DNA from: Candidatus Bathyarchaeota archaeon
GTDB taxonomy: Archaea; Thermoproteota; Bathyarchaeia; 40CM-2-53-6
Direction: 5' to 3'
DNA: 32,848 nt
NCBI GenBank assembly: GCA_963706285.1
Contig: CAVPLU010000020.1
Coordinates: 1 to 32,848, forward strand
Shown: positions 1,367-19,936 of the stretch, in pieces
How the letters are laid out: every line of letters starts with the position of its first letter
Numbering within the stretch: position 1 is the stretch's first letter
The notes under the pieces: generated by a model
The model's database searches: none
Seen by the model: the letters and a program-made list of their open reading frames with translations, nothing else
Told to the model about the DNA's origin: nothing
Program-made: the position numbers and the translations under genes

Positions 1367-1467
1367 TTTCTGATCCCACTACTCATTGCCTGAACGCTCC
1401 TAACGTTGCCTTAAGTCTGTCGCACGACCGATCGTTCTGTGAGCACCCATTTGCCCCATCGGGCAAG

Positions 1468-1477
1468 GCTTAATGTA
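1468..1477 (+). promoter_or_regulatory. putative TATA-like promoter element of tRNA-Met
   Basis: cttaatgta about 26-34 nt upstream of the tRNA 5' end. Confidence 0.35.
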
Positions 1478-1502
1478 CGGAATGGCTCACCGTATCAGCG
1501 CC

Positions 1503-1613
1503 GCCGGGGTGGCTCAGCTGGTAGAGCGCCAGCAAGGGCCGGATTGGCGAGACTCATAATCTGGAGAGCATAGGGCCCAGAAGTCGGGGGTTCGATACCC
1601 CCTCCCGGCACCA
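1503..1613 (+). tRNA. elongator tRNA-Met(CAT) with two non-canonical BHB introns (1533-1551 at 30/31; 1567-1582 at 45/46) and encoded CCA
   Basis: Acceptor GCCGGGG/TCCCGGC-A-CCA; D-arm GCTC..GAGC; T-arm GGGGG-TTCGATA-CCCCC. Removing both inserts gives CCAGA-CT-CAT-AA-TCTGG-AGGTC. Each insert folds as bulge-4bp helix-bulge (cgcc/ggcg; ctgg/ccag). Confidence 0.93.
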
Positions 1614-1666
1614 TCTGCACTAACCGGATAAAACGTAGGCACCTCCGGGTAGATCAGGCACAGAGG

Positions 1667-3001: not shown

Positions 3002-3256
3002 CAAGCTGGTCACGGATCGCCCTCTTCTGAGACGCCTATGACAATGGAGTGCTATTATAAATCCGCTTGCCGTATGTATGGTCATCTTCGGCGTTTCCGT
3101 CTGCAAATCTCTACGGATTGTCAACATTCGCTTGGAATATCTTGTGGTAATGAATCACTCACTCTTTATTCTCGGTCGCAACTGTGCGGATGCTGATCGG
3201 ATTGATGAAAGAGCCCGAGAACCGAGACCAACCTGCCTAGGAGGGCTGACCACGAG

Positions 3257-5347
3257 ATGAAAGATCCTATATGCGGAATGTATGTCGACGAGAATACGGC
3301 ACGAATAAAGAAGACCATCAGGGGAACGACATACTATTTCTGCAGCGAAAGCTGTCTCAGGCAATTTGAGAAGCCTGAGGTTGAACTGCGCAGACTTAAG
3401 ACGCTTTTCTCGATCGGCGCAATTCTGACCGTCCCTACAATGATACTGACCTATGTCCTAGTCTTGCCGCAGGTTCTGAACAACTACTTGCTGCTTCTGC
3501 TAAGCGCGCCGGTTCAGTTTGGCGTGGGCTTGAGATTCTACAAAGGCACGTATGATGCATTGAGGAACCGCATGGGGAACATGGATACGCTCATTGCAAT
3601 AGGCACAAGCGCGGCTTGGGCCTACAGTTTCATCGTGACTGTCTATCCTTCAGTGTTCCCTTCTAACACAGTATATTTTGACACGGCTGCTTTGATCATA
3701 ACACTCGTCCTGCTTGGGAATACACTCGAATACATGAGCAAAGCTAAGGCTTCTGAGTCAATCAGGAAGCTCTTGGATCTTCAATCCCGAACTGCACGCA
3801 TCGTGCGCGACGGCAGGGAGGCAGACATCCCTGTAGAAGAAGTGCAAGTTGGCGACCTGTTCCTTGTTCGGCCAGGTGAAAGAGTGCCTGTTGATGGGGT
3901 GGTCCTCGAAGGCCACACAGCGATCGACCAGTCAATGATCACTGGAGAAAGCATACCCGTCGAAAAGGAAACAGGCGACCAGGTGATCGGAGGCACTATC
4001 AACAAAACCGGTTTTGTACGAGCCAGAGCAGAGAAGGTCGGAGCAGACACTGTCCTCTCCAAAATTATCCAACTCGTGGAGGAGGCACAGATGGCAAGAG
4101 CACCAATACAGAGACTGGCAGACAGAATAGCCGGCTATTTCGTGCCCGCAGTTCTGGCAATTGCCAGCATCTCGGCGTTGATTTGGTATTTCATCGGCCA
4201 GATTGGACTGAACTTTGCCTTGCTGGCCTTCGTCTCAGTGGTCATAATAGCTTGCCCCTGCGCCCTCGGAATTGCGACGCCGGCAGCAGTCATGGTTGGC
4301 ACAGCCAAAGGAGCACAACAAGGAATTCTGATCAAGGGCGGCGAACACCTCGAAGCAGCAGAAAAAGTGGACACTGTAGTATTCGATAAGACCGGAACAT
4401 TGACTATGGGCGAACCCACCGTCACTGACATCATTACCTACCGCGGCCTCGCAAAAGAAGACGTGCTACGGTATGCAGCGATTGCCGAGAAGAGGTCGGA
4501 GCATTCTCTTGGCGAGGCAATTCAACGCGAAGCCCGCCGATTGCAGATACAGATTCCTGATCCTGAGTCGTTCGAAGCAATCCCAGGAATGGGAGTAAGG
4601 TGCCATTATGATGGGCACGAGATCAAGTTCGGAAATCTCCTGTTGATGTCGACCTCAGCTTTCACTGTCCCTAGCGAGGTCGAGAACCAAATCTTGACTC
4701 TAGAGAACGAAGGCAAGACAGCAATGATCCTCTCAATCGACAACAACATTGCCGGCTTGATAGCAGTCGCGGACACCCTCAAAGAGCATTCTGCAGAAGC
4801 GATCCGGCAGCTTGCTCTGATGGGCATTGAAGTCGTCATGCTGACTGGGGACAACGAAAGAACGGCACGCACAATTGCGAAGAAGCTCGGGATTGAACGA
4901 GTACTATCACAAGTGCTCCCCGATCAGAAGGAACGGATCATCAGAGAAATCCAACACGAGGGTAGGCACGTCGCTATGGTCGGCGATGGAGTGAACGACG
5001 CCCCTGCCCTGGCTGCGGCTGATGTTGGGATCGCCATTGGAAGTGGAACGGATGTCGCAGTCGAAACTGGTGGGATAGTCCTCATTCGAGATGATCCGAT
5101 AGACGTCGTTACTGCGATCCAGCTGAGCAAGCGCACGTTGCAGAAAATCAAACAAAACCTCTTCTGGGCTTTCGCCTACAACACGATATTGATACCTGTC
5201 GCAGCGGGAGCGCTTGTTCCATTTCTGGGCGCTGGAGTGTACGATTACTTACCATTCCTTGCAGCCGGGGCGATGGCGTTCAGCTCTGTAACGGTTGTTG
5301 GCAACTCTCTTCTGCTTTCCAGATTTACTCCCACGGCGATTCCGTGA
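3257..5347 (+). CDS. copA: copper-translocating P1B-type ATPase with N-terminal YHS metal-binding domain
   Basis: DPICGM...YYFCSESC (YHS), TGES, CPC, DKTGT, SEH, GDGVNDAP, YN and MAFSS motifs; AGGAGG RBS upstream. Confidence 0.95.
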   Translation: MKDPICGMYVDENTARIKKTIRGTTYYFCSESCLRQFEKPEVELRRLKTLFSIGAILTVPTMILTYVLVLPQVLNNYLLLLLSAPVQFGVGLRFYKGTYDALRNRMGNMDTLIAIGTSAAWAYSFIVTVYPSVFPSNTVYFDTAALIITLVLLGNTLEYMSKAKASESIRKLLDLQSRTARIVRDGREADIPVEEVQVGDLFLVRPGERVPVDGVVLEGHTAIDQSMITGESIPVEKETGDQVIGGTINKTGFVRARAEKVGADTVLSKIIQLVEEAQMARAPIQRLADRIAGYFVPAVLAIASISALIWYFIGQIGLNFALLAFVSVVIIACPCALGIATPAAVMVGTAKGAQQGILIKGGEHLEAAEKVDTVVFDKTGTLTMGEPTVTDIITYRGLAKEDVLRYAAIAEKRSEHSLGEAIQREARRLQIQIPDPESFEAIPGMGVRCHYDGHEIKFGNLLLMSTSAFTVPSEVENQILTLENEGKTAMILSIDNNIAGLIAVADTLKEHSAEAIRQLALMGIEVVMLTGDNERTARTIAKKLGIERVLSQVLPDQKERIIREIQHEGRHVAMVGDGVNDAPALAAADVGIAIGSGTDVAVETGGIVLIRDDPIDVVTAIQLSKRTLQKIKQNLFWAFAYNTILIPVAAGALVPFLGAGVYDYLPFLAAGAMAFSSVTVVGNSLLLSRFTPTAIP

Positions 5348-5383
5348 AAGCTCCAGCACTGACGGCGGACGGGTACTAGCATT

Positions 5384-6016
5384 CTAGTCTTTTCGTTCGA
5401 GCATGAGCTTGGTGATCTTTGTTCCGTATCTTTCCTTATATTCAGTGAGACACGGTTTGCAGCAGAAGTAGCGGTTTCTATCTCCAATCAGAAGTGTGAC
5501 GGGGTCGCCATGTATTTCTTGTCCACATAGGTCACAGGTGAGTCTAACAAATTGGCCCGGGCGGATTGCAACGTTCGGTTCATCCTTGACGACCCGCGCT
5601 ACCACATTATAAGTTAGAGATGCCACGTTCGGTATCGACGAGATCGTCGATGACAGAAGTGTCTGAAGTTCATCCAGGCTAGCTGTGAACACGGTAAAGA
5701 GCACGTTGTGTTCGCCTGTCATTCCGTAGACGTTCCGTATCTCCGGCACCTTTGCCAGAGCGTTCAGGACATCATCAGCCTTACCGGGTTCTACCCTTGC
5801 CGTCGCAACGGCAAATAGCCCACTCGTTATCTTGGAAGCATCAATTATGGGCGCAATCTTCTTGATCAAACCCATATCCAGCATTTTCCGCAGATGACTT
5901 TCGACTGTGGGCGTACTCACCCCTGCGGTGCGGGCGATATCCCTCAGGGAACGTCTGCCATCCTCCGTAAGTGCGGTGAGAATGTGATAGTCTGTATCAT
6001 CAATTCGATTTGGCAA
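5384..6016 (-). CDS. Lrp/AsnC-family regulator with C-terminal TRASH domain (CopT/CopR-like metal sensor); probable start TTG 6016, ORF open to 6052
   Basis: IDDTDYHIL..DGRRSLRDIA HTH, AsnC/RAM domain, CDLCG...YFCCKPC TRASH motif; convergent with copA. Confidence 0.88.
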   Translation of the reverse strand: MPNRIDDTDYHILTALTEDGRRSLRDIARTAGVSTPTVESHLRKMLDMGLIKKIAPIIDASKITSGLFAVATARVEPGKADDVLNALAKVPEIRNVYGMTGEHNVLFTVFTASLDELQTLLSSTISSIPNVASLTYNVVARVVKDEPNVAIRPGQFVRLTCDLCGQEIHGDPVTLLIGDRNRYFCCKPCLTEYKERYGTKITKLMLERKD

Positions 6017-6358
6017 GACACACGCCAGTAGTACTTTGAGTACTGGCCACATTAAAATAGTTATCAGGAGAACGCCAGTTCAGTGCCATTATGCGGGAGA
6101 CCGCAAATGGGTCTTCTCTGTACTTGTCAGACAAGGATGATGTTGCTCTGGATCATGCCTCTTTGGATACTGAACCAGTCGGAATCAAAACAGTGTCGGC
6201 AGTATCGCGAGCAGATTCCTATCCCTGTAGGTCTGTAAACCCTTACACCTTCCATTCCGTGACCGCCTTCGTGCAGGCGCGCGACCGCTTAAATACTCAA
6301 GTGGTTCGATTCTGGCCTAAAGCGATTCAGATGATGTTCTCACTGAGGGAATCCTGAA

Positions 6359-7929: not shown

Positions 7930-8955
7930 CTAGAATGCTGAATGGAAAATCGAATGCGCATATTCTCTGATCGCGTTTGCCTTATTCTCGAAATCTCGGA
8001 ACGACCAACCCGGGTAGGGGCGATGCGTCGTCGTCAAGACCAAGCGATCAGACCCTACATTTTTGATCACGCATTTGACGACATCAACCAGCTCCTCCTC
8101 AGAGACCCTGGGGTTACAGAGGAGGTCTATCGGGATACCGGTGAAGAAGATGGCGTCTGGGAGGGATCCCCTCACAGCGGCCAGCGCAGTTGCCCACTCA
8201 CGCGCGGCCGCAATGGTTGATTTTGGCCTAGTGTCGAGAGGGTGAAAGCCCGAGTAACCTTGAGCTAGTGCCGCGAGGTATTTCGTGACATCTCCGTCAC
8301 TGTGGAGAACAGAGTACTTTCCCCCTTTGATGATTGCTCGTCCCAGCTCGACCTGTCTACGAACAATAGTGAAGGCGAACTCTGGTTTGTAGATTGATCC
8401 CATGTAACCACAAGAATCGTCGGCGATTCTGATCGAATCGATCGCGTCGTATTCGACTGCTCGTTTGACTACGTGACGAAGAAGATCTGAAAATTTCGCA
8501 TGGATCACATCTGCTTTGTTAGGACTCAGGACCGTCAAGATGGAAAAATCAAACCGATGCGAGATCTGGCCTAGTCTTCTTGCCTGAGGAGTCTTCCCTG
8601 AACTACACGAGCACTCAGAGTACTCTGTCGGTCCCAGAAGCTCAAGTTGAAACGACTTTGTTCGATCCACTGTGATAGTCTCGGCCACAATCTCGTCCAT
8701 CTCAGCTACGAGATCGTCAACGGCAGGCCAGTCGTAGGCGTCTGGATCAAGCCTATCACACCATTCCCGACGCGACTCTAGATCTCGCTTGAAAGGCCCA
8801 CCTTCCTCGTAGAAATCAAAGGACTTGAACCAGCATCGAACACCTACAATGTCGCCTATCCTCGCCTCAAGCTTCGGATCGGCAAGCCAGAAGTACAGCG
8901 GGAGCCTAGTTGCTCTTCCCTGCATGGCTTCCGAGATCAAAGTCCGAGAGGTCAA
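7930..8955 (-). CDS. uroporphyrinogen decarboxylase/MtaA-CmuA-like TIM-barrel protein (divergent)
   Basis: IRIADD-G, VLHSDGDV, GFHPLD, GIPIDLL, C-terminal LVLTTTH...FEN pattern typical of the URO-D/CIMS superfamily. Confidence 0.65.
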   Translation of the reverse strand: MTSRTLISEAMQGRATRLPLYFWLADPKLEARIGDIVGVRCWFKSFDFYEEGGPFKRDLESRREWCDRLDPDAYDWPAVDDLVAEMDEIVAETITVDRTKSFQLELLGPTEYSECSCSSGKTPQARRLGQISHRFDFSILTVLSPNKADVIHAKFSDLLRHVVKRAVEYDAIDSIRIADDSCGYMGSIYKPEFAFTIVRRQVELGRAIIKGGKYSVLHSDGDVTKYLAALAQGYSGFHPLDTRPKSTIAAAREWATALAAVRGSLPDAIFFTGIPIDLLCNPRVSEEELVDVVKCVIKNVGSDRLVLTTTHRPYPGWSFRDFENKANAIREYAHSIFHSAF

Positions 8956-9021
8956 TCAACACAACTCTCAAATGTACAGTGCGGGATCGCCATCAGATCA
9001 CGATGATTGTTAGAGAAATTA

Positions 9022-9127
9022 TGGAGCCCCGGCCGAGGTTTGAACTCGGGACCCTTGCCTCTTCAGGCGTCGTTACCAAGGCAATGCTCTCGGCTGCAAA
9101 GCATCTACCAGGCTGAGCCACCGGGGC
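9022..9127 (-). tRNA. tRNA-Thr(GGT) with two BHB introns (9089-9104 at 22/23; 9061-9073 at canonical 37/38) and encoded CCA
   Basis: Reverse complement: GCCCCGG TG GCTC AGCCTGGTAG[16 nt]AGC A TTGCC TT GGT A[13 nt]A GGCAA GGGTC CCGAG TTCAAAC CTCGG CCGGGGC T CCA. Confidence 0.93.
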
Positions 9128-9152
9128 TGCGGTTCAGGTCAGGATGATCTTC

Positions 9153-9164
9153 TAATAAAGTTTC
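9153..9164 (-). promoter_or_regulatory. TATA box/BRE of tRNA-Thr
   Basis: gaaac-tttatta on the minus strand, about 26-37 nt upstream of the tRNA 5' end. Confidence 0.55.
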
Positions 9165-9376
9165 GATTAGGAAAGGGCACGTCATTTTCGCTGACACATC
9201 GGTGCTATCTCGCTGCTCTGAAATGACAGAAACGTGAGCATGTCGGTCACCTTCCTCTCCCGATTGGTCAAGCAGAGGTTTGTGTATTCGCCGCTCGTCA
9301 AACGCTTTTACCAAATGTTTAAGACTACTCCGCCATTCAAGTCTGCTCAACGAATCATAAGGAGGAAGAATGAATA

Positions 9377-10252
9377 TTGGTTAAGCGATGTCCAACATGC
9401 GGATACAACAACAGAGATGACGCCGTCTTCTGCTCGAGCTGCGGCGGTTCACTTGCTGCCGCTGGAGCACCAATGATGAAACCAGTGCCGTCAGTTCGTG
9501 TCGTAACTCCGGTCACGTCAGGGGCGCCAATGAGGGTTCCTGCACCAGGAATGTGTTTCTACCACCCGAGCCTTCCAGCTGTGTACATATGCAACCGTTG
9601 TGGCAGAGCAATCTGCCGTGACGACTCAAAGTCCTACATGGACCTAATCCTCTGCCCACAATGCTACCAAGGAATTGTGCCACCGATGGCAATGGCTCCG
9701 CAAGCACCACAATACGCGCCAGCACCACAGTATGGGCCACAATTTGCACCTGCACCACAATTTGCACCTGCGCCACAATTTGCACCTGCGCCACAATTTG
9801 CACCTGCGCCACAATTTGCCGGACCTATGATGGGTCCTATGGGACCTCCCATGATGGGAGCCGGACCTGCAAGGTCGCTATGGGCTTTCATACTTGCTTT
9901 GGTTTCAGGAATCCTTGTGCTGCTCAACGCGGGACTGCTGCTAGCGTGGCAATTCTACGGCGGAACATTCCTTTGGGCGAACATATTCTTCTGGATCTGC
10001 AACATTGACCGTTCTACAGGATGTCCACTGCCTTCAGGATCTACTGCGACTGGCACGATCACATTCGTGATCGGAGCGATCATAGGCCTAATCATAATCG
10101 TCGGATCGATTATGATGATCCTAGGATACGGCACAATCGGCAGCCTCATCATTTTCCCGCTAGCCGTCTTCAGCCTGATCATAGGCGGCGGCTTCATCGC
10201 AGGCTTCATACTAGGAATCATCGCCGGTATCATGGGCATGTTAGGGCGATAG
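9377..10252 (+). CDS. membrane protein: N-terminal zinc ribbon, B-box-like zinc finger, Pro/Gln/Phe repeat linker, C-terminal multi-TM domain
   Basis: CPTC-x10-CSSC; C-x2-H-x8-C-x2-C-x4-C-x2-D-x9-C-x2-C; (APQFAP)n; three to four hydrophobic helices ending in a Gly-rich GGGFIAGFILGIIAG segment. Confidence 0.85.
   Translation: MVKRCPTCGYNNRDDAVFCSSCGGSLAAAGAPMMKPVPSVRVVTPVTSGAPMRVPAPGMCFYHPSLPAVYICNRCGRAICRDDSKSYMDLILCPQCYQGIVPPMAMAPQAPQYAPAPQYGPQFAPAPQFAPAPQFAPAPQFAPAPQFAGPMMGPMGPPMMGAGPARSLWAFILALVSGILVLLNAGLLLAWQFYGGTFLWANIFFWICNIDRSTGCPLPSGSTATGTITFVIGAIIGLIIIVGSIMMILGYGTIGSLIIFPLAVFSLIIGGGFIAGFILGIIAGIMGMLGR
9737..9819 (+). repeat. 18-bp in-frame tandem repeat (CCACAATTTGCACCTGCR), about 4.6 copies, encoding PQFAPA
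   Basis: Directly visible; more degenerate PQY copies precede it from about 9700. Confidence 0.95.
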
Positions 10253-10269
10253 TCCTTATATCCCCCCAG

Positions 10270-10281
10270 TTTTTTTTCTTT
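10270..10281 (+). terminator. oligo-T archaeal terminator candidate
   Basis: ttttttttcttt starting 18 nt after the stop at 10252. Confidence 0.55.
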
Positions 10282-10295
10282 AACTTAGTATCTGT

Positions 10296-11954
10296 TTGGT
10301 CGTGTGTTCCGTGTCGTATGTGGCGATCTCCGGCCAAGTAACCGAGAAGTTGGTTAGGGAGGCGAGAGATCATCCAGAAGAGCAGGTCGTCGGTGTATTG
10401 CTCGGCGGACAGTTTGGCAGCACGATTGCCATTGAAGACGCCGCGACAGGACCTGCGGATGCCGACGCCACAAGGGCGACACTAACCGGGGATTCGATCG
10501 CAAGAATAGCGGATGACATAATCAATAAGAGAATAAGAGGAAGTATTGTGGGTTGGTATCATTCTCATGTTCGCGGTGGCGTCTTCATGTCCGAGACAGA
10601 CGTGGAGACTCAGCTCAAGCTCCAACAGTTCTCTCCTCTGGTGACGGCAATGGTGATTGATACGCAAACCGGAACATCAGGATTCTTCAGGGCTGACCCG
10701 AAGACGCGAGAAGCGGTGTCTGTGCCTTCACAGAACGCAAGGACCGAAGTCTCATCGCCCGTTTCCACGTCTAACTATGCGCCTGAGCGGGCTACGTACC
10801 CGCAGTATCCCGTACAGGTGACGCAGGGTCCATCAACTCGTACATTGTTGCTTGCGCTTTTGATTATCACATTGGCCGTAACAGGAGGCATCTTGGCCCT
10901 GGTATACTACCGCAACCCAACTGTCTCGGGGAGCAGCGGCAATCTCGCGATAACTCATGCTCAACCTGCGGGACCGTTCACGATCGGGAACCCCATAACG
11001 ATCGATGCAAACGTCACCGGCTCTAATCTACTGAATGTCACGTTGGCCTACAAGATAATCGAAGCAGCTCCCAACTCCCAGGGCGGATTGATCATCGGAG
11101 ACTTGGTTCAAGTGCCCATGCTTCCAAGATCGGCAGAGTGCACGAGTAACGAACCCTGCACGTATTCCTACACATTGCCGTCTTCTGAAATATCTGGACG
11201 CTTTGTTCAGTACTACGTCTCCGCCTTTGACACGGCCTCCCCACCAAACACTGTTCGCACCGACATCTTCACTCTCAATGTGGGCGACTTCAGTTGGGGT
11301 GCGGACAAGACCGAGGTGGTTGCTATTCGACAAGCCCAGGCCGGCGTATCAATTCCCTTAAATTCGATTAATGGATTCAATGATCTCGTCACCCTCAGAA
11401 TCCTCACTCAACCGCCGCTAGGAGTTCGAATAGTTCCTATCAGCACGCAAGTTCGTCCTCCAAACGCCGCCAACCTAATAATAACCAGCACTGATAACGC
11501 TCAGATCACTAACAAGTACCCAATTCAAGTCGACGCCGTCTACACTATACGCAACGTGCAGGTGATACGCTCCACGACACTAGAGCTCACATTGACTGAC
11601 TTCGGCATCGCTGTATCGCCAACCTACGCGAAGACTACGCAATGTTATGCCTCCGATAGCTGTACTGACTCGAATGAGTTCGCACAGTACACCGTGACGC
11701 TTACGATCTACGACGGCTTCACCGCGCCGAACGGTATCCTACTCGTCCCAAGTGGACTTCCGGATCATACTCGCTACGAGATTCTGTTGGTTAGTCAGAA
11801 GATTGGCACGGACGAAACACAGACATTAACCTACTCTCTCATAGTACGCGCTGATACCGATTCCACCGTGAACAGGTACCTCTTTTCAATGGTAGCGACG
11901 GCCGGGAGCATCACACATAGTGTGGACAATATCCAGTTTGAGATCGTGGACTGA
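10296..11954 (+). CDS. membrane-anchored JAB/MPN (JAMM, Rpn11-like) domain protein with large C-terminal extracytoplasmic beta-rich region (start may be GTG 10311)
   Basis: VVGVLLG then GWYHSH-x7-S-x2-D-x2-TQ (H89, H91, S99, D102); TM at aa 184-204; about 345 aa Thr/Val-rich Ig-like region with two close Cys pairs. Confidence 0.9.
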   Translation: MVVCSVSYVAISGQVTEKLVREARDHPEEQVVGVLLGGQFGSTIAIEDAATGPADADATRATLTGDSIARIADDIINKRIRGSIVGWYHSHVRGGVFMSETDVETQLKLQQFSPLVTAMVIDTQTGTSGFFRADPKTREAVSVPSQNARTEVSSPVSTSNYAPERATYPQYPVQVTQGPSTRTLLLALLIITLAVTGGILALVYYRNPTVSGSSGNLAITHAQPAGPFTIGNPITIDANVTGSNLLNVTLAYKIIEAAPNSQGGLIIGDLVQVPMLPRSAECTSNEPCTYSYTLPSSEISGRFVQYYVSAFDTASPPNTVRTDIFTLNVGDFSWGADKTEVVAIRQAQAGVSIPLNSINGFNDLVTLRILTQPPLGVRIVPISTQVRPPNAANLIITSTDNAQITNKYPIQVDAVYTIRNVQVIRSTTLELTLTDFGIAVSPTYAKTTQCYASDSCTDSNEFAQYTVTLTIYDGFTAPNGILLVPSGLPDHTRYEILLVSQKIGTDETQTLTYSLIVRADTDSTVNRYLFSMVATAGSITHSVDNIQFEIVD

Positions 11955-11979
11955 TTGAAGGCAGACTTGATTGCTTGCT

Positions 11980-11987
11980 GGAGGTGA
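11980..11987 (+). promoter_or_regulatory. Shine-Dalgarno site for the ubiquitin gene
   Basis: GGAGGTGA ending 9 nt before TTG 11997. Confidence 0.7.
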
Positions 11988-11996
11988 AAGAAGCAC

Positions 11997-12248
11997 TTGA
12001 AACTCTTCGTTCAGGCACCTATTGGGCCGCAGACAGGGCTGGCTGAGATCGATGTCATACCGGATCATACAGTCGGAGAGATCAAGCAGCAGGTATGCAC
12101 CTCGTTCGGAGTTGATCCTGCTACGGTCGCCTTGATGTACGGTGGCATCATACTTGACGAGTCCAGCACAGTCAGCAGAGCCGGGATCCCTGAGAATGCC
12201 CAACTTGCACTGATGCCCTACAATATCATCGGTGGCAACGGAAGGTGA
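11997..12248 (+). CDS. eukaryote-like ubiquitin homolog, precursor with GG followed by NGR
   Basis: Colinear with ubiquitin: MKLFV..IDV.PDHTVGEIK...GV....LMYGG.IL....TV...GI......L......GG; strong RBS; stop overlaps the E2 start (GTGA). Confidence 0.9.
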   Translation: MKLFVQAPIGPQTGLAEIDVIPDHTVGEIKQQVCTSFGVDPATVALMYGGIILDESSTVSRAGIPENAQLALMPYNIIGGNGR

Positions 12249-12838
12249 ACCTTCCGCTTCTCTACAAGGAGAAGAATTTCACAAACCACCAATTCCCAAC
12301 GGTAATGGCTCTCAATGATCCGCCTACGGCATACGAGGGTATGCTCAGGTGCGAGAAAGGAGATGTGAAGACTCTCGCTGAGAAGAAGATCTGGCCCTTC
12401 ACCGAGTACGCTGACTGGAACAGATTCAGGCTAGAACTTCCCGACGAGTATCCGGTGAAGCCTCCCAAAGCGATGTGGCTCTCCGACATCTCCCACCCAA
12501 ACATCGTGCCTAAAGTCATGAACGCTGTCTGCGTCTCGATCATTGGTGAGAACTGGCGCCCCGACCTGAAACTTGTCTCTGTAGTGAACGCTCTTTACTA
12601 CCTACTGTCTGATCCAAACCCTGACAATGTATTCGACCACCCCGATTGCCTCAAGGCTGCAAACGTCTGCAGATCATACGGATTTCCAAAAATGACAAAG
12701 CGAAAGACTGCGACACAGCAGGGCGATCTTGTTCGATTCAACATCGTCCCAGTACCTCAAGCGCGACCAAGAGAGCCTGCACCGACGGGAGATGTGATAC
12801 GATTTCGAATCCTTGACAGGGAGCGAAAGGAACATTAG
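12245..12838 (+). CDS. ubiquitin-conjugating enzyme E2 (UBC fold) with C-terminal tail
   Basis: FRLELPDEYPVKPPK, HPNI (84-87), catalytic Cys96 in VCVSII, WRP, LLSDPNPD. Confidence 0.94.
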   Translation: MNLPLLYKEKNFTNHQFPTVMALNDPPTAYEGMLRCEKGDVKTLAEKKIWPFTEYADWNRFRLELPDEYPVKPPKAMWLSDISHPNIVPKVMNAVCVSIIGENWRPDLKLVSVVNALYYLLSDPNPDNVFDHPDCLKAANVCRSYGFPKMTKRKTATQQGDLVRFNIVPVPQARPREPAPTGDVIRFRILDRERKEH

Positions 12839-14095
12839 TTGAAAGTAAAGCTCTCGATGCCGTCTGTTCGAGACATAGAACTTGACGTTCCTTCAACAGC
12901 AACGATCAGTTACCTTAAGGAAAAGGCATGCAAGAAGCTAGGAATCGAGTCTGACCTGACAAGCATCCTATGTGATGGTACTCGGATCGATGGAAAACGA
13001 AGCGTCGGCAGCCTCCATCTCAAGCAGAAGATCCTGACAGTCGACTATCTCTGGGCTCGTCATCTAATACTTTGGGGGCCGGATGGGCAGAAACGACTCA
13101 GAGGAGCAACTGTACTTGTCGCTGGTGCGGGGGCGATCGGTAATGAGGTTGCGAAGAATCTTGCAATGCTCGGCGTCAAGCGCCTACTGATTATTGACAA
13201 CGATACCGTCGAACTTTCGAACACGAGTCGAATGATCTTCTTCGATCGCAAGAGCCTGGGCTTGAACAAGGCGGAAATGCTCGCTAGAGGAATCACCCAG
13301 AAGTTCCCCTATGTTGAAGCAATTGCATGGACCGGAGCGCTCGAAGATCTTCCACTCGAACACATTCTAAGTGCCGACGTGATCGTGTGCGGTCTGGACA
13401 ATGTACTCTCCAGGATATACCTAGCACAAGTTTCCAGAAGGTACTCCATACCAATGATAGACGGAGGCATCGTTGGGTATCGCGGACGTGTCCAAGTCTA
13501 CGTTCCCCCAGACACGCCATGCCCGCTGTGCACATACCCATCCTCCGAATACGGCCGCATTGCAGGGCTCAGGAACCCCTGCGATGGGCCAGCTGAAGAA
13601 ACGAAGGTCCCATCTCTTCCGACGACGATCTCGTTGGTTTCTTCGATCCAATGCCAGGAGGCGACCAAACTGATCGTCGGTTACCAAAGCTACTTGAGAA
13701 ATGCAATTTGGCCGAAAGAGACCGGAGAACCGCTCAGGGGCGTGCTGATGATCGACTTGCAGTACAATCGTTACAGTCTAATGGAGATCAAACGAAATAA
13801 GAGCTGCATTGTGTGCGGGGAAAACGGCCTGGCCGAGAAGCCTGTGCCAGTGCTGACGATCCCAATAGGAGAAATTCGCGACTCAACCTCCAGACTGCAT
13901 CAGATGGTTGCTAGCAGAATGAAATTGACAGCACAACAAGTCATGTTGTTCTTGCAGCGTCATAACAAAACGGTGCGAGTCAAGAGAGGGCAGTCTCTTC
14001 GGCGGGCACGCATCGGTGTGGGGAGCGTCATCACCGCGGTCGCACAAGATGGCCCCAACTACAGTGAAGCTGTGATTAGGCTCACAGGACCCTAG
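12839..14095 (+). CDS. ubiquitin-activating enzyme E1 (ThiF/MoeB adenylation domain) with N-terminal Ubl domain and C-terminal UFD-like domain
   Basis: RHLILWG..GQ..L, GAGAIG, D.DTVELSN..R, GLDN, CPLC and CIVC zinc pairs, probable catalytic Cys248 (NPCDG); starts immediately after the E2 stop. Confidence 0.93.
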   Translation: MKVKLSMPSVRDIELDVPSTATISYLKEKACKKLGIESDLTSILCDGTRIDGKRSVGSLHLKQKILTVDYLWARHLILWGPDGQKRLRGATVLVAGAGAIGNEVAKNLAMLGVKRLLIIDNDTVELSNTSRMIFFDRKSLGLNKAEMLARGITQKFPYVEAIAWTGALEDLPLEHILSADVIVCGLDNVLSRIYLAQVSRRYSIPMIDGGIVGYRGRVQVYVPPDTPCPLCTYPSSEYGRIAGLRNPCDGPAEETKVPSLPTTISLVSSIQCQEATKLIVGYQSYLRNAIWPKETGEPLRGVLMIDLQYNRYSLMEIKRNKSCIVCGENGLAEKPVPVLTIPIGEIRDSTSRLHQMVASRMKLTAQQVMLFLQRHNKTVRVKRGQSLRRARIGVGSVITAVAQDGPNYSEAVIRLTGP

Positions 14096-14211
14096 ACCCA
14101 GGGCGAATGCATGAATGCATGGTAGCAGCGTTAGAGCTCCGATGGACAATGGGTATCAAACGTAGCAATGGTTATTACATGTCTGAGTCGGTATCTGATT
14201 AGGTCTGGACC

Positions 14212-14595
14212 ATGCGACAGTGTTCATCCTGTGGAAGTAGAAACTCCGATGATGCAGCTTTCTGTAGCATGTGTGGTTTCTCCTTTGCTGGAATCCAACC
14301 GCAGCAGTACATGCAACCGGTCGGAGCGGCGATGAAGCCTGTTCCAGTTGTGAAAACGATCACCCCATTAGCGCAGGCAGGCCCGCAGCAGCAGTGGCCG
14401 GTTCCAATGGCTCGGTCGCAGATGACGGTCGGATCCTGCTCTTTTCACCCTGAGCTTCCGGCTTCATACATATGCATTCGATGCGGCAAGCAGATATGCT
14501 TCTCCTGCACGAAAACCTACGGTCAGCTCGCGATATGTCCCGAGTGCTACTGGGCGATGGCACCGCGCACAGGCACAGCGCAGCCAGGGCGCTGA
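14212..14595 (+). CDS. soluble zinc ribbon + B-box-like zinc finger protein, paralog of the N-terminal half of 9377..10252
   Basis: CSSC-x10-CSMC; C-x2-H-x8-C-x2-C-x4-C-x2-C-x9-C-x2-C; shared MKPVP.V..[VI]TP linker motif. Confidence 0.85.
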   Translation: MRQCSSCGSRNSDDAAFCSMCGFSFAGIQPQQYMQPVGAAMKPVPVVKTITPLAQAGPQQQWPVPMARSQMTVGSCSFHPELPASYICIRCGKQICFSCTKTYGQLAICPECYWAMAPRTGTAQPGR

Positions 14596-14606
14596 AACGA
14601 GCTTCC

Positions 14607-16223
14607 CTACGCGAGGAGCCCTTTCCTCTTCAGTCGCTCTGTGGATAGCTTGACCTCATTCACGGACAACCCAAGATCCTTCGAAGCTTGGCTGAGTGAT
14701 ATCTCACCATTTCGTTTCGCGATATATTGGTAGACTCGGTTATCCAGCTCCTCCGAGCCAGCAGCTGCTGAGGCCTGGCCTCGCTTCCGGGCAGCTCCAG
14801 CAACTGCCGTCTTGCGTCGCCTGACACCAGAGCTAAGTGACGAGCCTAGCCTTGCAAAAGATCTCGGGCGCTTCGCAACTATGAATATGAAGGCAGTGAC
14901 GATTGTTGCTGCGGCGCCCAAAGAGACAATGAAGATCCACAAGGATGCGTAGTCTGTGACCCACTGTGCTTCTACCATGTAGGGTCGATCCATCGTGACC
15001 TCATTTTCACCCGGTGGGACAGCGCTAATCACATTAGAGGAATTGAGGCGCCAGCCAGCGAGCGTATGTTTCACTAACAATTCTGACCCGCTGTAAGTCA
15101 CACCAAACTTTGCTTTTTCCCCATCAAGATACCAGCCAGTACCTGTCGGTTCCCCAAATGAGGACGTTACGAGAAGGTAGTACTGTGTTTGATAGATCAA
15201 CCGTACGTTGTGCGGTTTGTTCATCACAAGCTCCGCCGATATTCCTGGCTGAGTCATGCCATCGATATTCCATGAAAGCCAGACAAATCGTTGAACCGAG
15301 CTTCCCGGGATTGAGATTGTTTGAGGAACAGGACCAAGAGAAGCAGTCTGGCCAGCATCGTACCAGGTGCTGTTAGGGGTCGAGATTCTCTGAGCGATAT
15401 CTGGTGGATCGTAGGTGACTTCCAATTTGTATTGTGTCTTGTATCTTGCAGTCACTGACTTGGGTCCATCCATGCGAGCAGACCCGTGGGAATCGGTACC
15501 TGTATAGTCTCCTACCCATTGAACAAAAACTTGCCGAGTATCGGTTCCATTTGTTCCTTTGGGTGCAAGGAAATCTGCCGTAGATCCAGCGTCGAGCCAG
15601 AGAGTTGAGGGCGAGAAAAGTCCGACCGGATCATACGATATTCGGAGGATATACTGTGTCTTCCAGGTGGCAACTGCTTTCTTCGGACCATTCATGATTA
15701 TGGAGTCGGAGATTATCCCCTGCCCTGAGGCATCTTGTCCCCACTTGACAAACAGATATCTTACTCCTTCGGATCCGCTTGTCATGTTCGTGTCCAACTT
15801 GGCTTGGGCAGTTGTTCCCCCGTCGTACCAATCACTTCTAGACGGCGTTCCGTACTGTGAGACGACTTCGAGGTAGTATTGTGCCTTGTAGGTGAATGCG
15901 TGAGTGCCAGTGCCAGTTCCCGTGAAGGACCACAGATTGTCTTTGCATTGATACCTGGTTCCGTTGGTCCCGCCCACGTTTAGGTCGACGCTGAGCGTGT
16001 GCGCACCGCCAGGAGAGATGCTTAGGGTCTTCGTGTCGCCTGTTGCAATCGTTCCGTTCAGCATGCCGTCGAGGTAATATTGAGTTCTTGCTCCGCTCGG
16101 AAGCCCTGTCACTGTGAAGGAGACGGAGTACGCTTGAGCCTTCACGAGTGTCGGTGCGGTGACGAGAGAAATGAGGATCAGTACGTCGAGTGCCAAGATG
16201 GCCAATCTAGTCCTCGACAACAT
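14607..16223 (-). CDS. type I membrane/surface protein: signal peptide, about four QY-x-L...WY repeats, TM, basic linker, C-terminal winged-helix domain (probable start ATG 16223; ORF open to 16325)
   Basis: Signal ending VKA-QA; repeats QYYLEV/QYILRI/QYKLEV/QYYLLV with W[YL]DxG; TM LWIFIVSLG..FIFIV; tail RVYQYIAKRNGEISLSQASKDLGLSVNEVKLSTERLKRKGLLA. Confidence 0.85.
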   Translation of the reverse strand: MLSRTRLAILALDVLILISLVTAPTLVKAQAYSVSFTVTGLPSGARTQYYLDGMLNGTIATGDTKTLSISPGGAHTLSVDLNVGGTNGTRYQCKDNLWSFTGTGTGTHAFTYKAQYYLEVVSQYGTPSRSDWYDGGTTAQAKLDTNMTSGSEGVRYLFVKWGQDASGQGIISDSIIMNGPKKAVATWKTQYILRISYDPVGLFSPSTLWLDAGSTADFLAPKGTNGTDTRQVFVQWVGDYTGTDSHGSARMDGPKSVTARYKTQYKLEVTYDPPDIAQRISTPNSTWYDAGQTASLGPVPQTISIPGSSVQRFVWLSWNIDGMTQPGISAELVMNKPHNVRLIYQTQYYLLVTSSFGEPTGTGWYLDGEKAKFGVTYSGSELLVKHTLAGWRLNSSNVISAVPPGENEVTMDRPYMVEAQWVTDYASLWIFIVSLGAAATIVTAFIFIVAKRPRSFARLGSSLSSGVRRRKTAVAGAARKRGQASAAAGSEELDNRVYQYIAKRNGEISLSQASKDLGLSVNEVKLSTERLKRKGLLA

Positions 16224-16436
16224 GAAGGGGGGCCTCCGCCACCCGTTTAGCATGTGTCTAGGCCTAAAATGTGTTACACTCTCGGATCTGCCTTCATCGT
16301 GCCAAAACAGCAAGCCGGTAGTCAATCTCTGTTGTTAGATTGACTGCGCCGATATGGAGGATGCGAAGCTTGACGATACGATTTGCCAAGCCCATGAGCG
16401 CAATCGTCATAACTAATTCGGCCCCCTCACTGAGTT

Positions 16437-16805
16437 ATGGCTTCCACTCCGTACACGCGAGGCAGAAGTAGAGAATACCAAGTGCTGAAGAAACTGAGAC
16501 GCGAAGGGTGGTACTGTAGCAGGAGCGCAGCATCTCACGGCCCCGTGGACGTCTTCGCTGGGAAGAACGGACTCGTCCGCATGATTCAAGTGAAGAGCGG
16601 GCAAGCCAGACTGAGGCCTGGAGACAGGGAGACCCTCAAGCTTTGGGCACAAGCTTACGCCGGAGTAGCTGAGGTCTGGTATTTTGGCAAGCGCACAGGC
16701 ACAAAAATAGAAGTGATTCTCGACGCAAGAACACGACTTCTAACAACTTCACTCACATGTGCACGTCCAAGCAGACCTGGTAGCGACAAGGGCCAACACT
16801 TCTGA
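16437..16805 (+). CDS. Holliday junction resolvase-like PD-(D/E)XK nuclease (Hjc/Hje family)
   Basis: RG...EY.V...L...GW...RSAAS.GPVDVFA.K......IQVKS; 3' end overlaps the convergent gene by 53 nt. Confidence 0.8.
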   Translation: MASTPYTRGRSREYQVLKKLRREGWYCSRSAASHGPVDVFAGKNGLVRMIQVKSGQARLRPGDRETLKLWAQAYAGVAEVWYFGKRTGTKIEVILDARTRLLTTSLTCARPSRPGSDKGQHF

Positions 16806-17598
16806 CCACATGTGATTCTATGTTACCTTCCCCTGCGCCTATCTGTCTGAAACACGAGGACTCAAACTTCGACAAAGCCTGCATGCTTGCCGATGATCTA
16901 CGATTTGAGTCGATGAACACATAGCAGTGGACTACCCCGCAACCATTCTTCAATGCACTTTTCGCTGTCGGAAGAGACTGCAATGCCAATTCAGGCAACG
17001 GCAGCAAGACTCGATCAGCGCATCCGTTGAGAAAAGAGGACACTAGTTGGTTCGCGTCTCCGCAGATCACATCTATTCTATCTCGTACTCGGTTGAGTAC
17101 GTTGTTCATGGCATGATAGCGAACGGCCACTGGGTTGATGTCGAGGGAATAGACTCTTGAGGGGTGTGAGTGCTTCGCGATCATTATTGAGAAAGATCCC
17201 ACTCCAGCGAAAAAATTTACAACACATTCTCCCTGAGAAACCAAATCAGCAATTCGCTTTCGTTCATGACTGAGTCTCGGTGAGAAATACATCGTCTCTA
17301 GGTCGACTCGGTATTGGCAGCCATGCTCGCGGTGCAGAGTCTCGGTCCGTTGCTCACCCGCCAACCATTCAAACTTCCGGGTTCGAAACTGCGAACTAAC
17401 CGGACTAGTCTGTTCCAAGACGACTTTGAGGTTAGGTGCTAGATCAAGTAGGCTCTCCGCAATTTGGTGCTTTTCATGCTGAAATTCGTCGGGAAGCTTC
17501 AGGATCGCTATGTCTCCAACTATGTCAACACCTTTTTTGAGACGAGAAAGCTGTCCCGTGTCTAGGCATTTCTTTGCAGATTTCGCGAGTAGCCTCAA
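16753..17598 (-). CDS. Trm5/Taw2-family (Met-10+) SAM-dependent tRNA modification enzyme, lacking the D1 domain; Taw21-like
   Basis: DIVGDIAILK, FRTR, HREHG, YFSPRL..ERKR, FAGVGSFSI, DINP, DRVLLPLP; directly downstream of taw1. Confidence 0.85.
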   Translation of the reverse strand: MRLLAKSAKKCLDTGQLSRLKKGVDIVGDIAILKLPDEFQHEKHQIAESLLDLAPNLKVVLEQTSPVSSQFRTRKFEWLAGEQRTETLHREHGCQYRVDLETMYFSPRLSHERKRIADLVSQGECVVNFFAGVGSFSIMIAKHSHPSRVYSLDINPVAVRYHAMNNVLNRVRDRIDVICGDANQLVSSFLNGCADRVLLPLPELALQSLPTAKSALKNGCGVVHCYVFIDSNRRSSASMQALSKFESSCFRQIGAGEGNIESHVVRSVGPCRYQVCLDVHM

Positions 17599-17634
17599 CG
17601 TCGAACGCCACCGATCACCATTGAGGCTTCAGTC

Positions 17635-18570: not shown

Positions 18571-18705
18571 CGTGACCGGCCCGAAGCTCGACGGCGATCT
18601 GGCTGAGCGGAGATCTTGGCATCATTCTGGTTTGGGCCTCCGCATCGAGCAAGAATCTGCCGACCGCTTGACTGTTTTGAGTATGGTGAATTTGCCTCTT
18701 GATCT

Positions 18706-19848: not shown

Positions 19849-19936
19849 TGCTCCCTGCTCCACCACAAAGGCAATTGTCCTATTCTTCACACCGCTGATA
19901 AGCTTGCCCTTGACTGATCGATGCGCTGCAAGGTGT

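Follow-up and report, generated by a model that had tools for sequence, protein, structure and literature searches.

An Rpn11-like JAMM domain joined to a predicted transmembrane helix and an Ig-like ectodomain in a ubiquitin operon of Bathyarchaeia

Why would an archaeal ubiquitin operon carry its deubiquitinase-like domain on a protein that appears to be built into the membrane? Archaeal operons encoding E1, E2, E3, and Rpn11 are the best models for the origin of eukaryotic ubiquitin signalling, and the sole characterised operon of this kind that we are aware of, from Caldiarchaeum, is wholly soluble and has, to our knowledge, no known targets. The locus considered here lies on contig CAVPLU010000020.1 of a Candidatus Bathyarchaeota archaeon, in a stretch of 32,848 nucleotides that was analysed as a whole and is called the window below. 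It holds an operon with the gene order ZnF-TM, JAB-TM-ectodomain, ubiquitin, E2, E1, and ZnF, followed by a conserved convergent gene:

9377..10252, + strand: ZnF-TM, first operon gene, 291 aa; Zn_Ribbon_1 E 1.1e-6; syntenic in related loci
10296-11954, + strand: JAB-TM-ectodomain gene P0001, intact single ORF, 552 aa
11997..12248, + strand: ubiquitin, 83 aa, with the C-terminus ...IIGG-NGR (precursor with a 3-residue tail); Pfam ubiquitin E 8.5e-10
12245..12838, + strand: E2 (UQ_con), overlapping the ubiquitin stop codon; Pfam E 6.1e-16
12839..14095, + strand: E1 (ThiF) with an N-terminal ubiquitin-like domain; Pfam ThiF E 6e-48
14212..14595, + strand: soluble zinc ribbon and B-box-like protein (ZnF), 127 aa; Zn_Ribbon_1 E 2.5e-7
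14607..16325, - strand: conserved convergent neighbour, 572 aa, with hydrophobic segments; beside the operon in 12 loci

As in operons of the Caldiarchaeum type, a GG-bearing ubiquitin, an E2 (UQ_con), an E1 (ThiF), and a JAB protein are encoded together; the JAB protein, however, is a 552-aa product with a transmembrane (TM) helix and an ectodomain, where a soluble Rpn11 homologue some 200 aa long would be typical. The operon is syntenic among Bathyarchaeia MAGs, with an identical gene order in 7 of 8 loci from named MAGs. In several MAGs it occupies the same chromosomal neighbourhood, between genes for a 341-aa and the 572-aa protein, and almost every sampled member of several families has it. 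The ubiquitin-like domain of the E1 (residues 5-64) matches Pfam ubiquitin just below the cutoff (E 2.3e-5). ZnF-TM starts with a zinc ribbon, continues with another Cys/His finger, which is B-box-like, and a linker of AP(A)PQF repeats, and ends in a hydrophobic block (segments 163-194, 221-260, and 244-291; about 3-4 TM segments), which makes it a candidate membrane-embedded, E3-like partner. The 127-aa protein is paralogous to its N-terminus, as judged by cross-matches. For the two zinc-finger proteins, the Pfam matches to zf-B_box (E 0.0015-0.006, the latter for ZnF-TM) and Prok-RING_1 (E 0.0096, for ZnF-TM) all remain below cutoff, and the PDB search returned a single, weak match to p44 (E 0.77). 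The 572-aa neighbour, whose C-terminal tail adjoins the operon in loci L001, L003-L007, L053, and L055-L059, has a hydrophobic segment at its N-terminus and an ectodomain rich in beta structure; a TM segment (458-485) then leads into a cytoplasmic tail rich in Lys and Arg, the end of which has a weak, below-cutoff match to a wHTH-like domain (HTH_24, E 0.0011). A scan for sigma-70 promoters and terminators, a method not suited to archaea, gave results at chance level.

E1 and JAB genes are also found in bacterial anti-virus modules of the CBASS Cap2/Cap3-like or Bil-like type, and the operon might be such a module instead of a housekeeping ubiquitin system. PADLOC models for E1-E2 do recognise the E1 (best E 1.1e-16), and there is a weak PADLOC match on the JAB domain (E 5.8e-4). 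However, the matches on E1 are confined to the adenylation core, PADLOC returned nothing for the E2, the ubiquitin, or either zinc-finger protein, and the nearest relatives of the JAB domain are CsRpn11, CSN5, and Rpn11. The fixed neighbourhood and near-universal presence in several families are likewise unlike patchy defence islands, and we consider a defence role very improbable.

The 552-aa ORF starts with TTG (alternative GTG codons at 10302, 10311, and 10320) and is divided as follows:

10311..10736, + strand: JAB/MPN domain, Rpn11-like, residues 6-147, probably cytoplasmic; Pfam, PDB sequence search, Foldseek
10377..10385, + strand: E-loop E28-E29-Q30, with Q30 at the canonical ExxG spacing and E29 one residue upstream
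10560..10601, + strand: JAMM zinc motif HSHVRGGVFMSETD (H89, H91, S99, D102), invariant in 78/78 homologues
10737..10835, + strand: low-complexity Ser/Pro/Thr/Tyr/Gln linker, residues 148-180; AF2 pLDDT <50 at about 149-179
10836..10910, + strand: single transmembrane helix, residues 181-205; Kyte-Doolittle, AF2, position in homologues

This layout bears out the description given in the earlier note, which had proposed an N-terminal Rpn11-like MPN domain, a Ser/Pro/Tyr linker, one TM helix, and a beta-rich C-terminal part of about 345 aa. The stretch quoted there, GWYHSHVRGGVFMSETDVETQ, is found in the ORF and contains the HxHx7Sx2D motif; the helix is the sole hydrophobic segment by Kyte-Doolittle analysis (19-mer peak of 2.72 at residues 185-203); and residues 207-552 are all-beta in the AF2 model. 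The same JAB-TM-ectodomain order is shared by 78 full-length homologues with 29-89% identity, so that the search for further MPN-TM-ectodomain fusions suggested in that note was amply answered.

A trivial explanation would be that an assembly error or frameshift has joined a JAB gene to a separate gene for a membrane protein. Such errors do have precedents: contig C4 of this MAG carries another copy of the gene with at least three frameshifts, one homologue (G063) is frameshifted at the TM helix, and the window includes a fragmented gene for a molybdopterin oxidoreductase, indicating that indel errors or pseudogenes occur in this assembly. Read support across the junction, which the earlier note wished to see confirmed, was not obtained either, as the Logan contigs in run X5 cover 10603-10840 and 10878-11476 but none bridges 10840-10878; these contigs are short, and the best run contains a fraction of 0.36 of the sampled words. 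Pieces in the JAB domain, the ectodomain, and ubiquitin were recovered from an RNA-library run (X15), which indicates presence only and not transcription. Against an artefact stand the 78 fused homologues, which stem from JGI, ENA, NCBI, and Logan assemblies made independently, and the finding that the fused gene adjoins the E2 gene as a single match at 36 of 69 E2 places among the 401 genomes sampled; the homologues are thus not consistently split. Linker and helix are also colinear and conserved in position, with the strongest hydrophobic 19-mer beginning at residue 168-192 in all 78. Judged from these comparisons, the artefact reading appears effectively refuted, and we give it next to no weight.

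Relatives show the parts in other combinations. One locus (L055) encodes a JAB domain with a C-terminal tail anchor and no ectodomain, another (L057) a JAB domain joined to a domain with 6-7 TM segments, and in two loci of one family (L058 and L059) a JAB-less TM-ectodomain gene fills the same operon slot. The ectodomain is simply absent from some relatives, and others carry in its place a domain with several TM passes, a stalk rich in Thr, or a helical domain. The modules are separable, and what these proteins have in common is a position at the membrane, not a fixed sensor-enzyme unit.

The assignment of the N-terminal domain to the Rpn11-like JAMM proteins is well founded. Residues 6-114 match Pfam JAB (PF01398) with an E value of 2.7e-12 (47 bits versus a cutoff of 22.5), the top PDB sequence match is CsRpn11 of Caldiarchaeum subterraneum (6fjv, E 2.8e-12), followed by matches to CSN5 (E 9.1e-12) and Rpn11 (E 6.7e-7), and Foldseek superimposes the domain on the CsRpn11:Ub complex (6fnn_A) with a TMt of 0.84 and an rmsd of 2.1 over 148 columns at 28% identity. 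Archaeal JAMM1 desampylases of the HvJAMM1 type, which act on SAMPs without an E2, share the JAB fold, yet the NCBIfam model desamp_Halo matches only weakly (E 3.7e-7; 30 bits, far below the equivalog cutoff of 130), and separate JAMM1-like genes are present in the genome on contigs C8 and C16. Deubiquitination at a membrane surface is in itself familiar from AMSH/AMSH-LP, USP19, and USP30. Of these, AMSH is a JAMM enzyme acting on endosomal cargo that is recruited through ESCRT binding and has no TM helix, whereas USP19 and USP30 belong to the cysteine proteases. An extracytoplasmic Ig-like domain is not known from any of them. Eukaryotic Rpn11 (PSMD14) and CSN5, both among the Foldseek matches, share the MPN+ fold and the zinc site, and we know of no eukaryotic enzyme of their type with a TM helix. 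Excerpts of PMC6043591 describe them as soluble subunits of large complexes with an MPN- partner, whereas here a second, soluble MPN+ paralogue co-occurs, at most as a candidate partner.

CsRpn11 (6fjv, 6fju, 6fnn) is thus the best match in both sequence and structure, and the likeness extends to the adjacent genes for ubiquitin, E1, E2, and zinc-finger proteins, to a ubiquitin precursor with a short tail past GG, and to the identical zinc motif. Experimentally, it processes the ubiquitin precursor and deconjugates ubiquitin, according to excerpts of PMC6043591 and PMC5654768. The differences are equally clear: CsRpn11, from an aigarchaeote, is a soluble protein of 202 aa with C-terminal helices (excerpts of PMC6043591), whereas the window protein, from a member of the Bathyarchaeia, continues into a linker, a TM helix, and a 346-aa Ig-like ectodomain.

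Is the domain likely to be active? In known MPN- pseudo-enzymes of the Rpn8/CSN6 type the zinc-binding residues are lost, whereas here all zinc ligands and the Ser are kept in 78 of 78 homologues. The E-loop is less straightforward. CsRpn11 has Glu24 at the ExxG position, whereas the window protein has Gln there and Glu one residue upstream. HMMER aligns CsRpn11 Glu24 (numbering as in excerpts of PMC6043591) and the CSN5 Glu with Q30; BLASTP and hhalign instead pair E29 with the catalytic Glu and render Q30 as a one-residue loop insertion. Gln occupies the canonical position (-3, ExxG) in 66 of 78 homologues, 56 of which carry Glu at -4 and 10 of which do not. Other lineages have Q (L030 and L031) or R (L042) at this position, and a quick ML tree indicates at least two independent changes of the residue. 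The Gln had been overlooked by the earlier reader of this DNA. The resulting series of natural E-loop variants (E, EQ, QQ, KQ, and KR) offers material for probing the role of the catalytic Glu in JAMM proteins.

Gln at the canonical position, Glu one residue upstream, and invariant zinc ligands leave room for an active as well as an inactive enzyme. The JAMM domain might be dead or strongly attenuated, with the zinc and the groove for the ubiquitin tail kept but no general base, and hold ubiquitin or its conjugates at the membrane in the role of a receptor or scaffold, a 'substrate trap', leaving hydrolysis, including that of GG-NGR, to the soluble MPN+ paralogue. The repeated exchange of the residue speaks for this, as do published data, at least as excerpted: JAMM catalysis requires the Glu for water polarisation (PMC6043591), and in BRCC36 loss of activity is accompanied by a 4-5 Å displacement of the Glu (PMC4579573). 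The soluble paralogue (143-148 aa) fits the same scheme, since it has the canonical Glu in 22 of 22 sequences and is spread over those families that also have the E2 gene (in 70 and 67 of the 401 genomes, respectively; none in families f8, f14, f17, f20, and f22). With a Glu that is never lost, it could be the real protease. In this genome, it is a 147-aa protein encoded on contig C10, away from the operon; a predicted complex with JAB residues 1-148 (score 0.01, mark 0.32) carries no weight either way on the pairing of the two MPN domains. Against a dead JAMM domain stand the upstream Glu in 56 of the 66 Gln-bearing homologues, paired with the catalytic Glu by two of the alignment methods, the invariance of the zinc ligands and Ser, and the ubiquitin tail in all eight genomes of this genus, for which the operon JAB protein is the nearest candidate remover. 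We regard a dead or strongly attenuated domain as possible but doubtful. The best reading of the sequences is that the window protein is a membrane-tethered ubiquitin isopeptidase, possibly an attenuated one; with EQxxG in place of ExxG, activity may have shifted to E29 or may be reduced.

The ubiquitin genes bear on what such an isopeptidase would do. In genus g4, which keeps the JAB-TM gene with the canonical Glu, no residue follows the GG of ubiquitin in 12 of the 13 loci that have a ubiquitin match (L029 ends in GGSC). Maturation can therefore not be the conserved role, and the retention of the gene argues for deconjugation rather than maturation alone. The Gln-bearing genus of the window (g1) and the canonical-Glu genus g10 both have ubiquitins with tails, and no simple link between E-loop state and ubiquitin tail was seen among g1, g4, and g10.

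On which side of the membrane would the JAMM domain work? An N-in/C-out (type II) topology, as proposed in the earlier note, is most likely. In the window protein a single TM helix is present and a cleavable signal peptide is absent, the N-terminus being part of the MPN fold itself (strand 1 and helix 1) in the AF2 model. Lys/Arg flanks of the helix are uninformative in the fused family (higher on the N side in 18, equal in 42, and lower in 18); the JAB-less relatives have Arg/Lys-rich N-tails preceding the helix and are richer in Lys/Arg on the N side in 7 of 8 cases, with one tie. Per 100 aa, the C-part has 1.02 sequons and the N-part 0.24. Of the ectodomains, 47 lack Cys, 20 contain four, 5 contain two, 3 contain five, and 3 contain one. 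It is the missing signal peptide, an N-x-T sequon kept in 71 of 78 sequences, the mostly even Cys counts, and the Lys/Arg bias of the JAB-less relatives that together point to the JAB domain being inside. The C-terminal part comprises:

10917..11285, + strand: D1, Ig-like/E-set beta sandwich, residues 208-330; AF2, VIA
11034-11042, + strand: N247-V-T249 sequon in D1; N-x-T in 71/78
11139-11159, + strand: loop CTSNEPC (C282-C288) in D1
11286..11597, + strand: D2, PapD/ASH/MSP-like beta sandwich, residues 331-434; VIA matches 5ghu_A (Z 10.3) and 2e6j (Z 9.6)
11598..11951, + strand: D3, Ig-like beta sandwich, residues 435-552; VIA match to a FixG-C-like domain, 2r39_A (Z 9.2)
11643-11663, + strand: loop CYASDSC (C450-C456) in D3; Cys pair in 23/78

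AF2 models this part with a pLDDT of 93.5 and a pTM of 0.81 as one compact unit of three Ig-like beta-sandwich domains; the VIA match of D1 is the Ig-like domain of PPAD (5ak7_A, Z 11.4, rmsd 2.2 over 95 aa). The two Cys pairs to which attention had been drawn are both present in the window protein, but they are not features of the family: the four columns contain Cys in 8, 25, 23, and 23 of 78 sequences, and the last three are gaps in 51-53 of them. Because the pairs lie in loops of only about one third of the members, disulfides do not define the ectodomain. Sequence and structure searches place it in no particular functional class. Pfam gave no family for the window protein's ectodomain and only weak Ig-like matches for those of relatives, a protein atlas search gave scores of at most 0.81, and Foldseek and VIA returned generic Ig-like/E-set matches, with no ligand-binding family or pocket. 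All 38 phmmer matches among 1.84 billion representatives belong to the same family, its fragments, or the JAB-less TM-ectodomain forms. Mean identity to homologues is 76% for the JAB domain, 48% for the ectodomain, and 38% for the linker.

The earlier note had regarded the protein as a transmembrane receptor that could couple an external cue or S-layer contact to ubiquitin maturation or deconjugation. On such a model, binding of a ligand or touching of the S-layer by the Ig-like domains would control the JAMM domain inside by allostery. The architecture does resemble that of single-pass receptors, the three-domain ectodomain model is compact, and the JAB-less TM-ectodomain gene in the operon slot of L058 and L059 links the function of the ectodomain to the ubiquitin system. 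However, the joint between JAB domain and helix is a poorly conserved stretch of roughly 30 residues that is predicted to be disordered and would be a poor allosteric conduit, relatives have other modules or nothing in place of the ectodomain, and the generic structural matches offer no candidate ligand site. None of the results speaks for the coupling of an external cue to ubiquitin maturation. We consider allosteric signalling across the membrane improbable.

As a whole, the data are best explained by a tethered JAMM protein that deubiquitinates at the membrane and carries a non-catalytic Ig-like ectodomain outside, a reading to which we assign a probability of about 0.5. The cytoplasmic Rpn11-like domain would be held at the inner face of the membrane by its flexible linker of roughly 30 residues, with the three Ig-like domains outside the cell, and the protein would form the operon's own ubiquitin-specific module. 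E1, E2, and the membrane-embedded zinc-finger protein would place ubiquitin on targets at the membrane; the JAMM zinc site would then hold the C-terminal tail of ubiquitin as it is removed from membrane conjugates, and in this genus the tethered JAMM domain may additionally trim the GG-NGR precursor. The ectodomain, which appears to be a constant component of the operon even without a fused JAB domain, would be a fast-evolving and probably N-glycosylated surface module that anchors or partners the protein in the envelope.

A broader, unlikely possibility takes this deubiquitinating protein together with its neighbours: one order of the Bathyarchaeia may have a membrane-built ubiquitin system composed of the multi-pass zinc-finger E3-like protein, the tethered Rpn11-like module, and the always adjoining 572-aa neighbour with its wHTH-like tail end, with a role at the envelope or in transcription factor release and a division of labour between JAMM proteins. 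In eukaryotes, the membrane-tethered transcription factors Spt23/Mga2 and Nrf1 are freed by ubiquitin-dependent processing. If the joint reading were true, the system could serve the extraction and turnover of envelope proteins, in an ERAD-like manner predating eukaryotes, or the ubiquitin-dependent release of a membrane-tethered transcription factor. Likewise, a membrane JAMM protein with a drifting Glu next to a strictly canonical soluble MPN+ paralogue could represent an early form of the specialisation seen between Rpn8 and Rpn11.

In the open-access literature that was searched, no archaeal Rpn11-like protein anchored in a membrane was found described. That an Rpn11-like enzyme is built as a single membrane protein suggests the cell membrane as the site where this early ubiquitin system operates. 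A whole lineage would keep both its deubiquitinase and a partner with zinc fingers membrane-bound, together with an extracellular Ig-like protein that comes with or without the enzyme. The system would thereby gain a concrete place of action, and with it candidate targets among the envelope and membrane proteins of these archaea.

The protein encoded at 10296-11954 has the parts that the earlier note had read from the sequence, namely a JAB domain, a linker, a single transmembrane (TM) helix and a beta-rich region with two cysteine pairs, and all of them were found where it had placed them:

Window 10296-11954, forward strand: JAB-TM-ectodomain gene, a single open frame of 552 codons
Residues 6-114: JAB/MPN domain (Pfam, E = 2.7e-12, 47 bits, cutoff 22.5)
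H89-S-H91-x7-S99-x2-D102: complete JAMM zinc motif
Residues 148-180: linker rich in Ser, Pro, Thr, Tyr and Gln
Residues 184-205: sole strongly hydrophobic segment (Kyte-Doolittle 19-mer maximum 2.72)
Last 346 residues: beta-rich C-terminal part holding CTSNEPC (282-288) and CYASDSC (450-456)

The frame starts with TTG, and alternative GTG codons lie a few codons 3'. A homologue search in 5.8 billion proteins returned 98 matches, some of which are named merely 'proteasome lid subunit RPN8/RPN11' in the source databases. The 77 near-full-length matches (480-561 aa) were aligned with the query (78 rows, 29-89% identity), omitting shorter fragments and three metagenomic proteins whose C-terminal parts are unrelated (P0097-P0099). 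The zinc ligands are invariant, the motif being present in 78/78 sequences, and the strongest hydrophobic 19-mer begins at residue 168-192 in every row. On average, the JAB domain is 76% identical to that of the window protein, the helix 58%, the ectodomain 48% and the linker 38%. The AF2 model built from this alignment (mean pLDDT 83.6) contains a folded MPN domain, a stretch below pLDDT 50 (149-179), a helix (181-205) and a confident beta ectodomain. No read-level bridge over the JAB/TM junction was seen among short public contigs. Given that the search for other MPN-TM-ectodomain fusions, as suggested in the earlier note, yielded 77 near-full-length relatives from many independent assemblies, the fusion is genuine and an assembly artefact is very unlikely to be its origin.

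A scan of named genomes gave eight loci, seven of which, in MAGs of Bathyarchaeia/Bathyarchaeota, encode full-length relatives at 30-66% identity. The remaining locus, in a Methanomassiliicoccales MAG, matches the JAB-TM protein in the JAB domain only, and its matches are limited to E1, E2 and JAB. The order zinc-finger-TM protein, JAB-TM-ectodomain, ubiquitin (Ub), E2, E1 and small zinc-finger protein is kept at all seven Bathyarchaeia loci, save L002, where the contig edge follows E1. Across the six closest loci, the JAB-TM protein (50-66% identity) is far less conserved than Ub (90-96%), E2 (84-90%) and E1 (70-79%). Of 401 sampled Bathyarchaeia genomes, 67 yielded E2, all from a single order with one exception, and the JAB-TM protein has matches in 74, in the same families as E2. 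The 69 E2 places have the fused gene alongside as one match (36) or as two adjoining matches owing to a frameshift or masked bases (3), a JAB with a C-terminal part unlike the query (8), an ectodomain-like match alone (6), or no match within 3 kb (16). E1 (12839-14095, forward strand) carries its own N-terminal ubiquitin-like domain (residues 5-64, Pfam ubiquitin E = 2.3e-5, just below cutoff). In the zinc-finger-TM protein (9377-10252, forward strand), the linker is built of AP(A)PQF repeats (PQYAPAPQYGPQFAPAPQF...), and its counterpart in family f4 (L059) is a GPPMGMGAPMGPM repeat; these are low-complexity spacers from the cytoplasmic fingers to the membrane block.

The earlier note had proposed a type II topology with the JAB domain inside the cell. 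Within the fused family, neither flank of the helix is richer in Lys/Arg overall, whereas among eight JAB-less relatives read by eye the count is higher on the N side in seven and tied in one. In the AF2 model the N-terminus belongs to the MPN fold rather than to a signal peptide, and Ub, E1 and E2 are cytoplasmic proteins. Together, these observations make an N-in/C-out orientation most likely. An N-x-T sequon at 247-249 occurs in 71/78 sequences, and sequon density in the C-terminal part is four times that of the N-terminal part.

Folded alone from a 40-sequence alignment (pLDDT 93.5, pTM 0.81), the ectodomain consists of three beta sandwiches (protein residues about 208-330, 331-434 and 435-552), in keeping with the Ig-like character proposed for it. 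Foldseek and VIA-align returned generic Ig-like/E-set matches only, overall to tandem-Ig proteins: D1 matches the PPAD Ig-like domain (Z 11.4, rmsd 2.2, 95 aa, 24% identity), D2 PapD/ASH/MSP-like domains and D3 a FixG-C-like domain. Pfam recognises no family in the window protein's ectodomain and no more than weak Ig-like families in its relatives, and the modelled fold reveals no function. The cysteine pairs, in contrast, did not hold up as a general trait, with three of four pair columns being loop gaps in 51-53 of 78 sequences. Ectodomain cysteine counts (0 in 47, 4 in 20, 2 in 5, 5 in 3, 1 in 3) would fit optional, loop-closing disulfides outside the cell.

The modules also come apart. In family f16 (L055) the JAB is tail-anchored and the frame stops right after the helix; in one genome of genus g4 (L057) it is joined to a domain of 6-7 TM segments, and another g4 genome (L056) encodes the complete JAB-TM-ectodomain. 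In two inspected f4 genomes (L058, L059), the slot between the zinc-finger-TM gene and Ub holds a JAB-less protein of 361-388 aa, in which a short N-tail rich in Pro and Arg precedes a helix and a homologous ectodomain. P0097-P0099 again have this kind of JAB attached to a helix, but what follows the helix is Thr-rich or helical. With the ectodomain by itself as phmmer query, 1.84 billion representatives gave no more than 38 proteins; each of them shares the architecture, is a fragment or is a TM-ectodomain form lacking the JAB. From these loci and this search, the constants of the operon are membrane placement of the JAB, where present, and a TM-ectodomain protein, and the window gene is a fusion of both. 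The receptor proposed in the earlier note, whose ectodomain would control JAMM activity allosterically, is weakened by these interchangeable ectodomains as well as by the disordered linker, and we regard it as improbable.

The closest characterised protein is CsRpn11, the Rpn11-like JAMM enzyme of Caldiarchaeum subterraneum, which PMC6043591 and PMC5654768 describe as soluble and 202 aa long, whereas the window protein is membrane-anchored. Its active residues are Glu24, His83, His85, Ser93 and Asp96 (PMC6043591). In the HMMER alignments, Glu24 and its CSN5 equivalent fall on Q30 of the window protein, a residue with canonical ExxG spacing; BLASTP against a soluble paralogue and a profile comparison of the two families by hhalign place E29 opposite the catalytic Glu instead, leaving Q30 as a single inserted residue. 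The canonical position is Gln in 66 and Glu in 12 of 78 sequences. Among the 66, Glu stands one residue upstream in 56 and Asp or Glu two residues upstream in 60; two lack an acid at either place. Other lineages have EKQ (L030, L031) or DKR (L042), and on a quick ML tree this position must have changed independently at least twice. Judged from these alignments, the active site of the window protein appears non-canonical, and its function would hinge chiefly on whether E29 reaches the zinc-bound water.

The window's own MAG (G000) carries five JAB-family genes, including:

G000 contig C10:127519-127962 (L012:1381-1824), reverse strand: soluble, Rpn11-like MPN+ paralogue, 147 aa

This paralogue is 36% identical to the window JAB domain, has a canonical ERIG motif and sits in a neighbourhood unrelated to the Ub operon. 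Its orthologues measure 143-148 aa, and the canonical Glu is present in 22/22 (21 retrieved plus the G000 copy). In the 401-genome scan it matched 70 genomes and was not found in f8, f14, f17, f20 and f22. Since it occurs in E2-bearing families, it probably belongs to the same Ub system, and it could be a general processing enzyme. As the alternative to an active membrane-tethered isopeptidase, the JAB-TM protein might have turned into a Ub-binding scaffold, with the soluble paralogue performing the cleavage. Family f4 genomes encode a further JAB protein (L049, G022:C1, 336-aa frame) with a long coiled-coil-like N-terminal region and the canonical Glu, not adjoining the Ub operon.

Two neighbours flank the operon:

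Window 14607-16325, reverse strand: 572-aa membrane protein, beta-rich ectodomain, TM segment 458-485
Window 7930-8955, reverse strand: 341-aa protein upstream of the operon

The former has a Lys/Arg-rich cytoplasmic tail whose end weakly resembles a wHTH (HTH_24, below cutoff at E = 0.0011); at 12 inspected loci (f1, f4, f6, f7, f16) this C-terminal tail lies convergent to the operon while the ectodomain varies, and the protein may serve the Ub system as a target or a regulator. The latter has no Pfam or NCBIfam family and shares 64-68% identity with its counterparts at four related loci (L001, L003-L005). On G000 contig C4:220728-241413, ~17 kb of the window (1-6027 and 8945-19913) occur a second time at 94-95% identity, probably from a co-binned strain given the MAG contamination of 7.5%. 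At least three frameshifts break the JAB-TM gene of this copy into one frame with the JAB (178 aa) and one with the TM-ectodomain (417 aa); the E2 of the copy is intact (98% identity). A molybdopterin oxidoreductase (25914-28720, forward strand) appears split among three or more ORFs that overlap and lie in different frames (25914-26711, 27280-28128, 27911-28720), reflecting either a pseudogene or contig indel errors. A copper-type P-type ATPase carrying a YHS domain adjoins an Lrp/AsnC-TRASH regulator (3257-6052), an ordinary metal-resistance pair unrelated to the Ub operon.

An open-access literature search found neither an Rpn11-like protein anchored in an archaeal membrane nor the Bathyarchaeia operon described. 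Both the operon type and the family of the enzyme are already known, while, against that literature, the form with a membrane anchor and an ectodomain, the zinc-finger partner embedded in the membrane and the variation of the E-loop around the catalytic Glu appear new. Given that genus g4 retains the membrane JAB, with canonical Glu, although Ub terminates exactly at GG in 12 of its 13 loci with a Ub match, precursor trimming cannot be the conserved role. In the window's genus, Ub has a tail of 1-3 residues in 8/8 genomes. The most economical reading of the sequences is a predicted membrane-tethered Ub isopeptidase, which would act on conjugates formed at the membrane, with the zinc-finger-TM protein as its likely, candidate E3-like partner; in the window's genus, this enzyme may be attenuated or may employ the shifted Glu.
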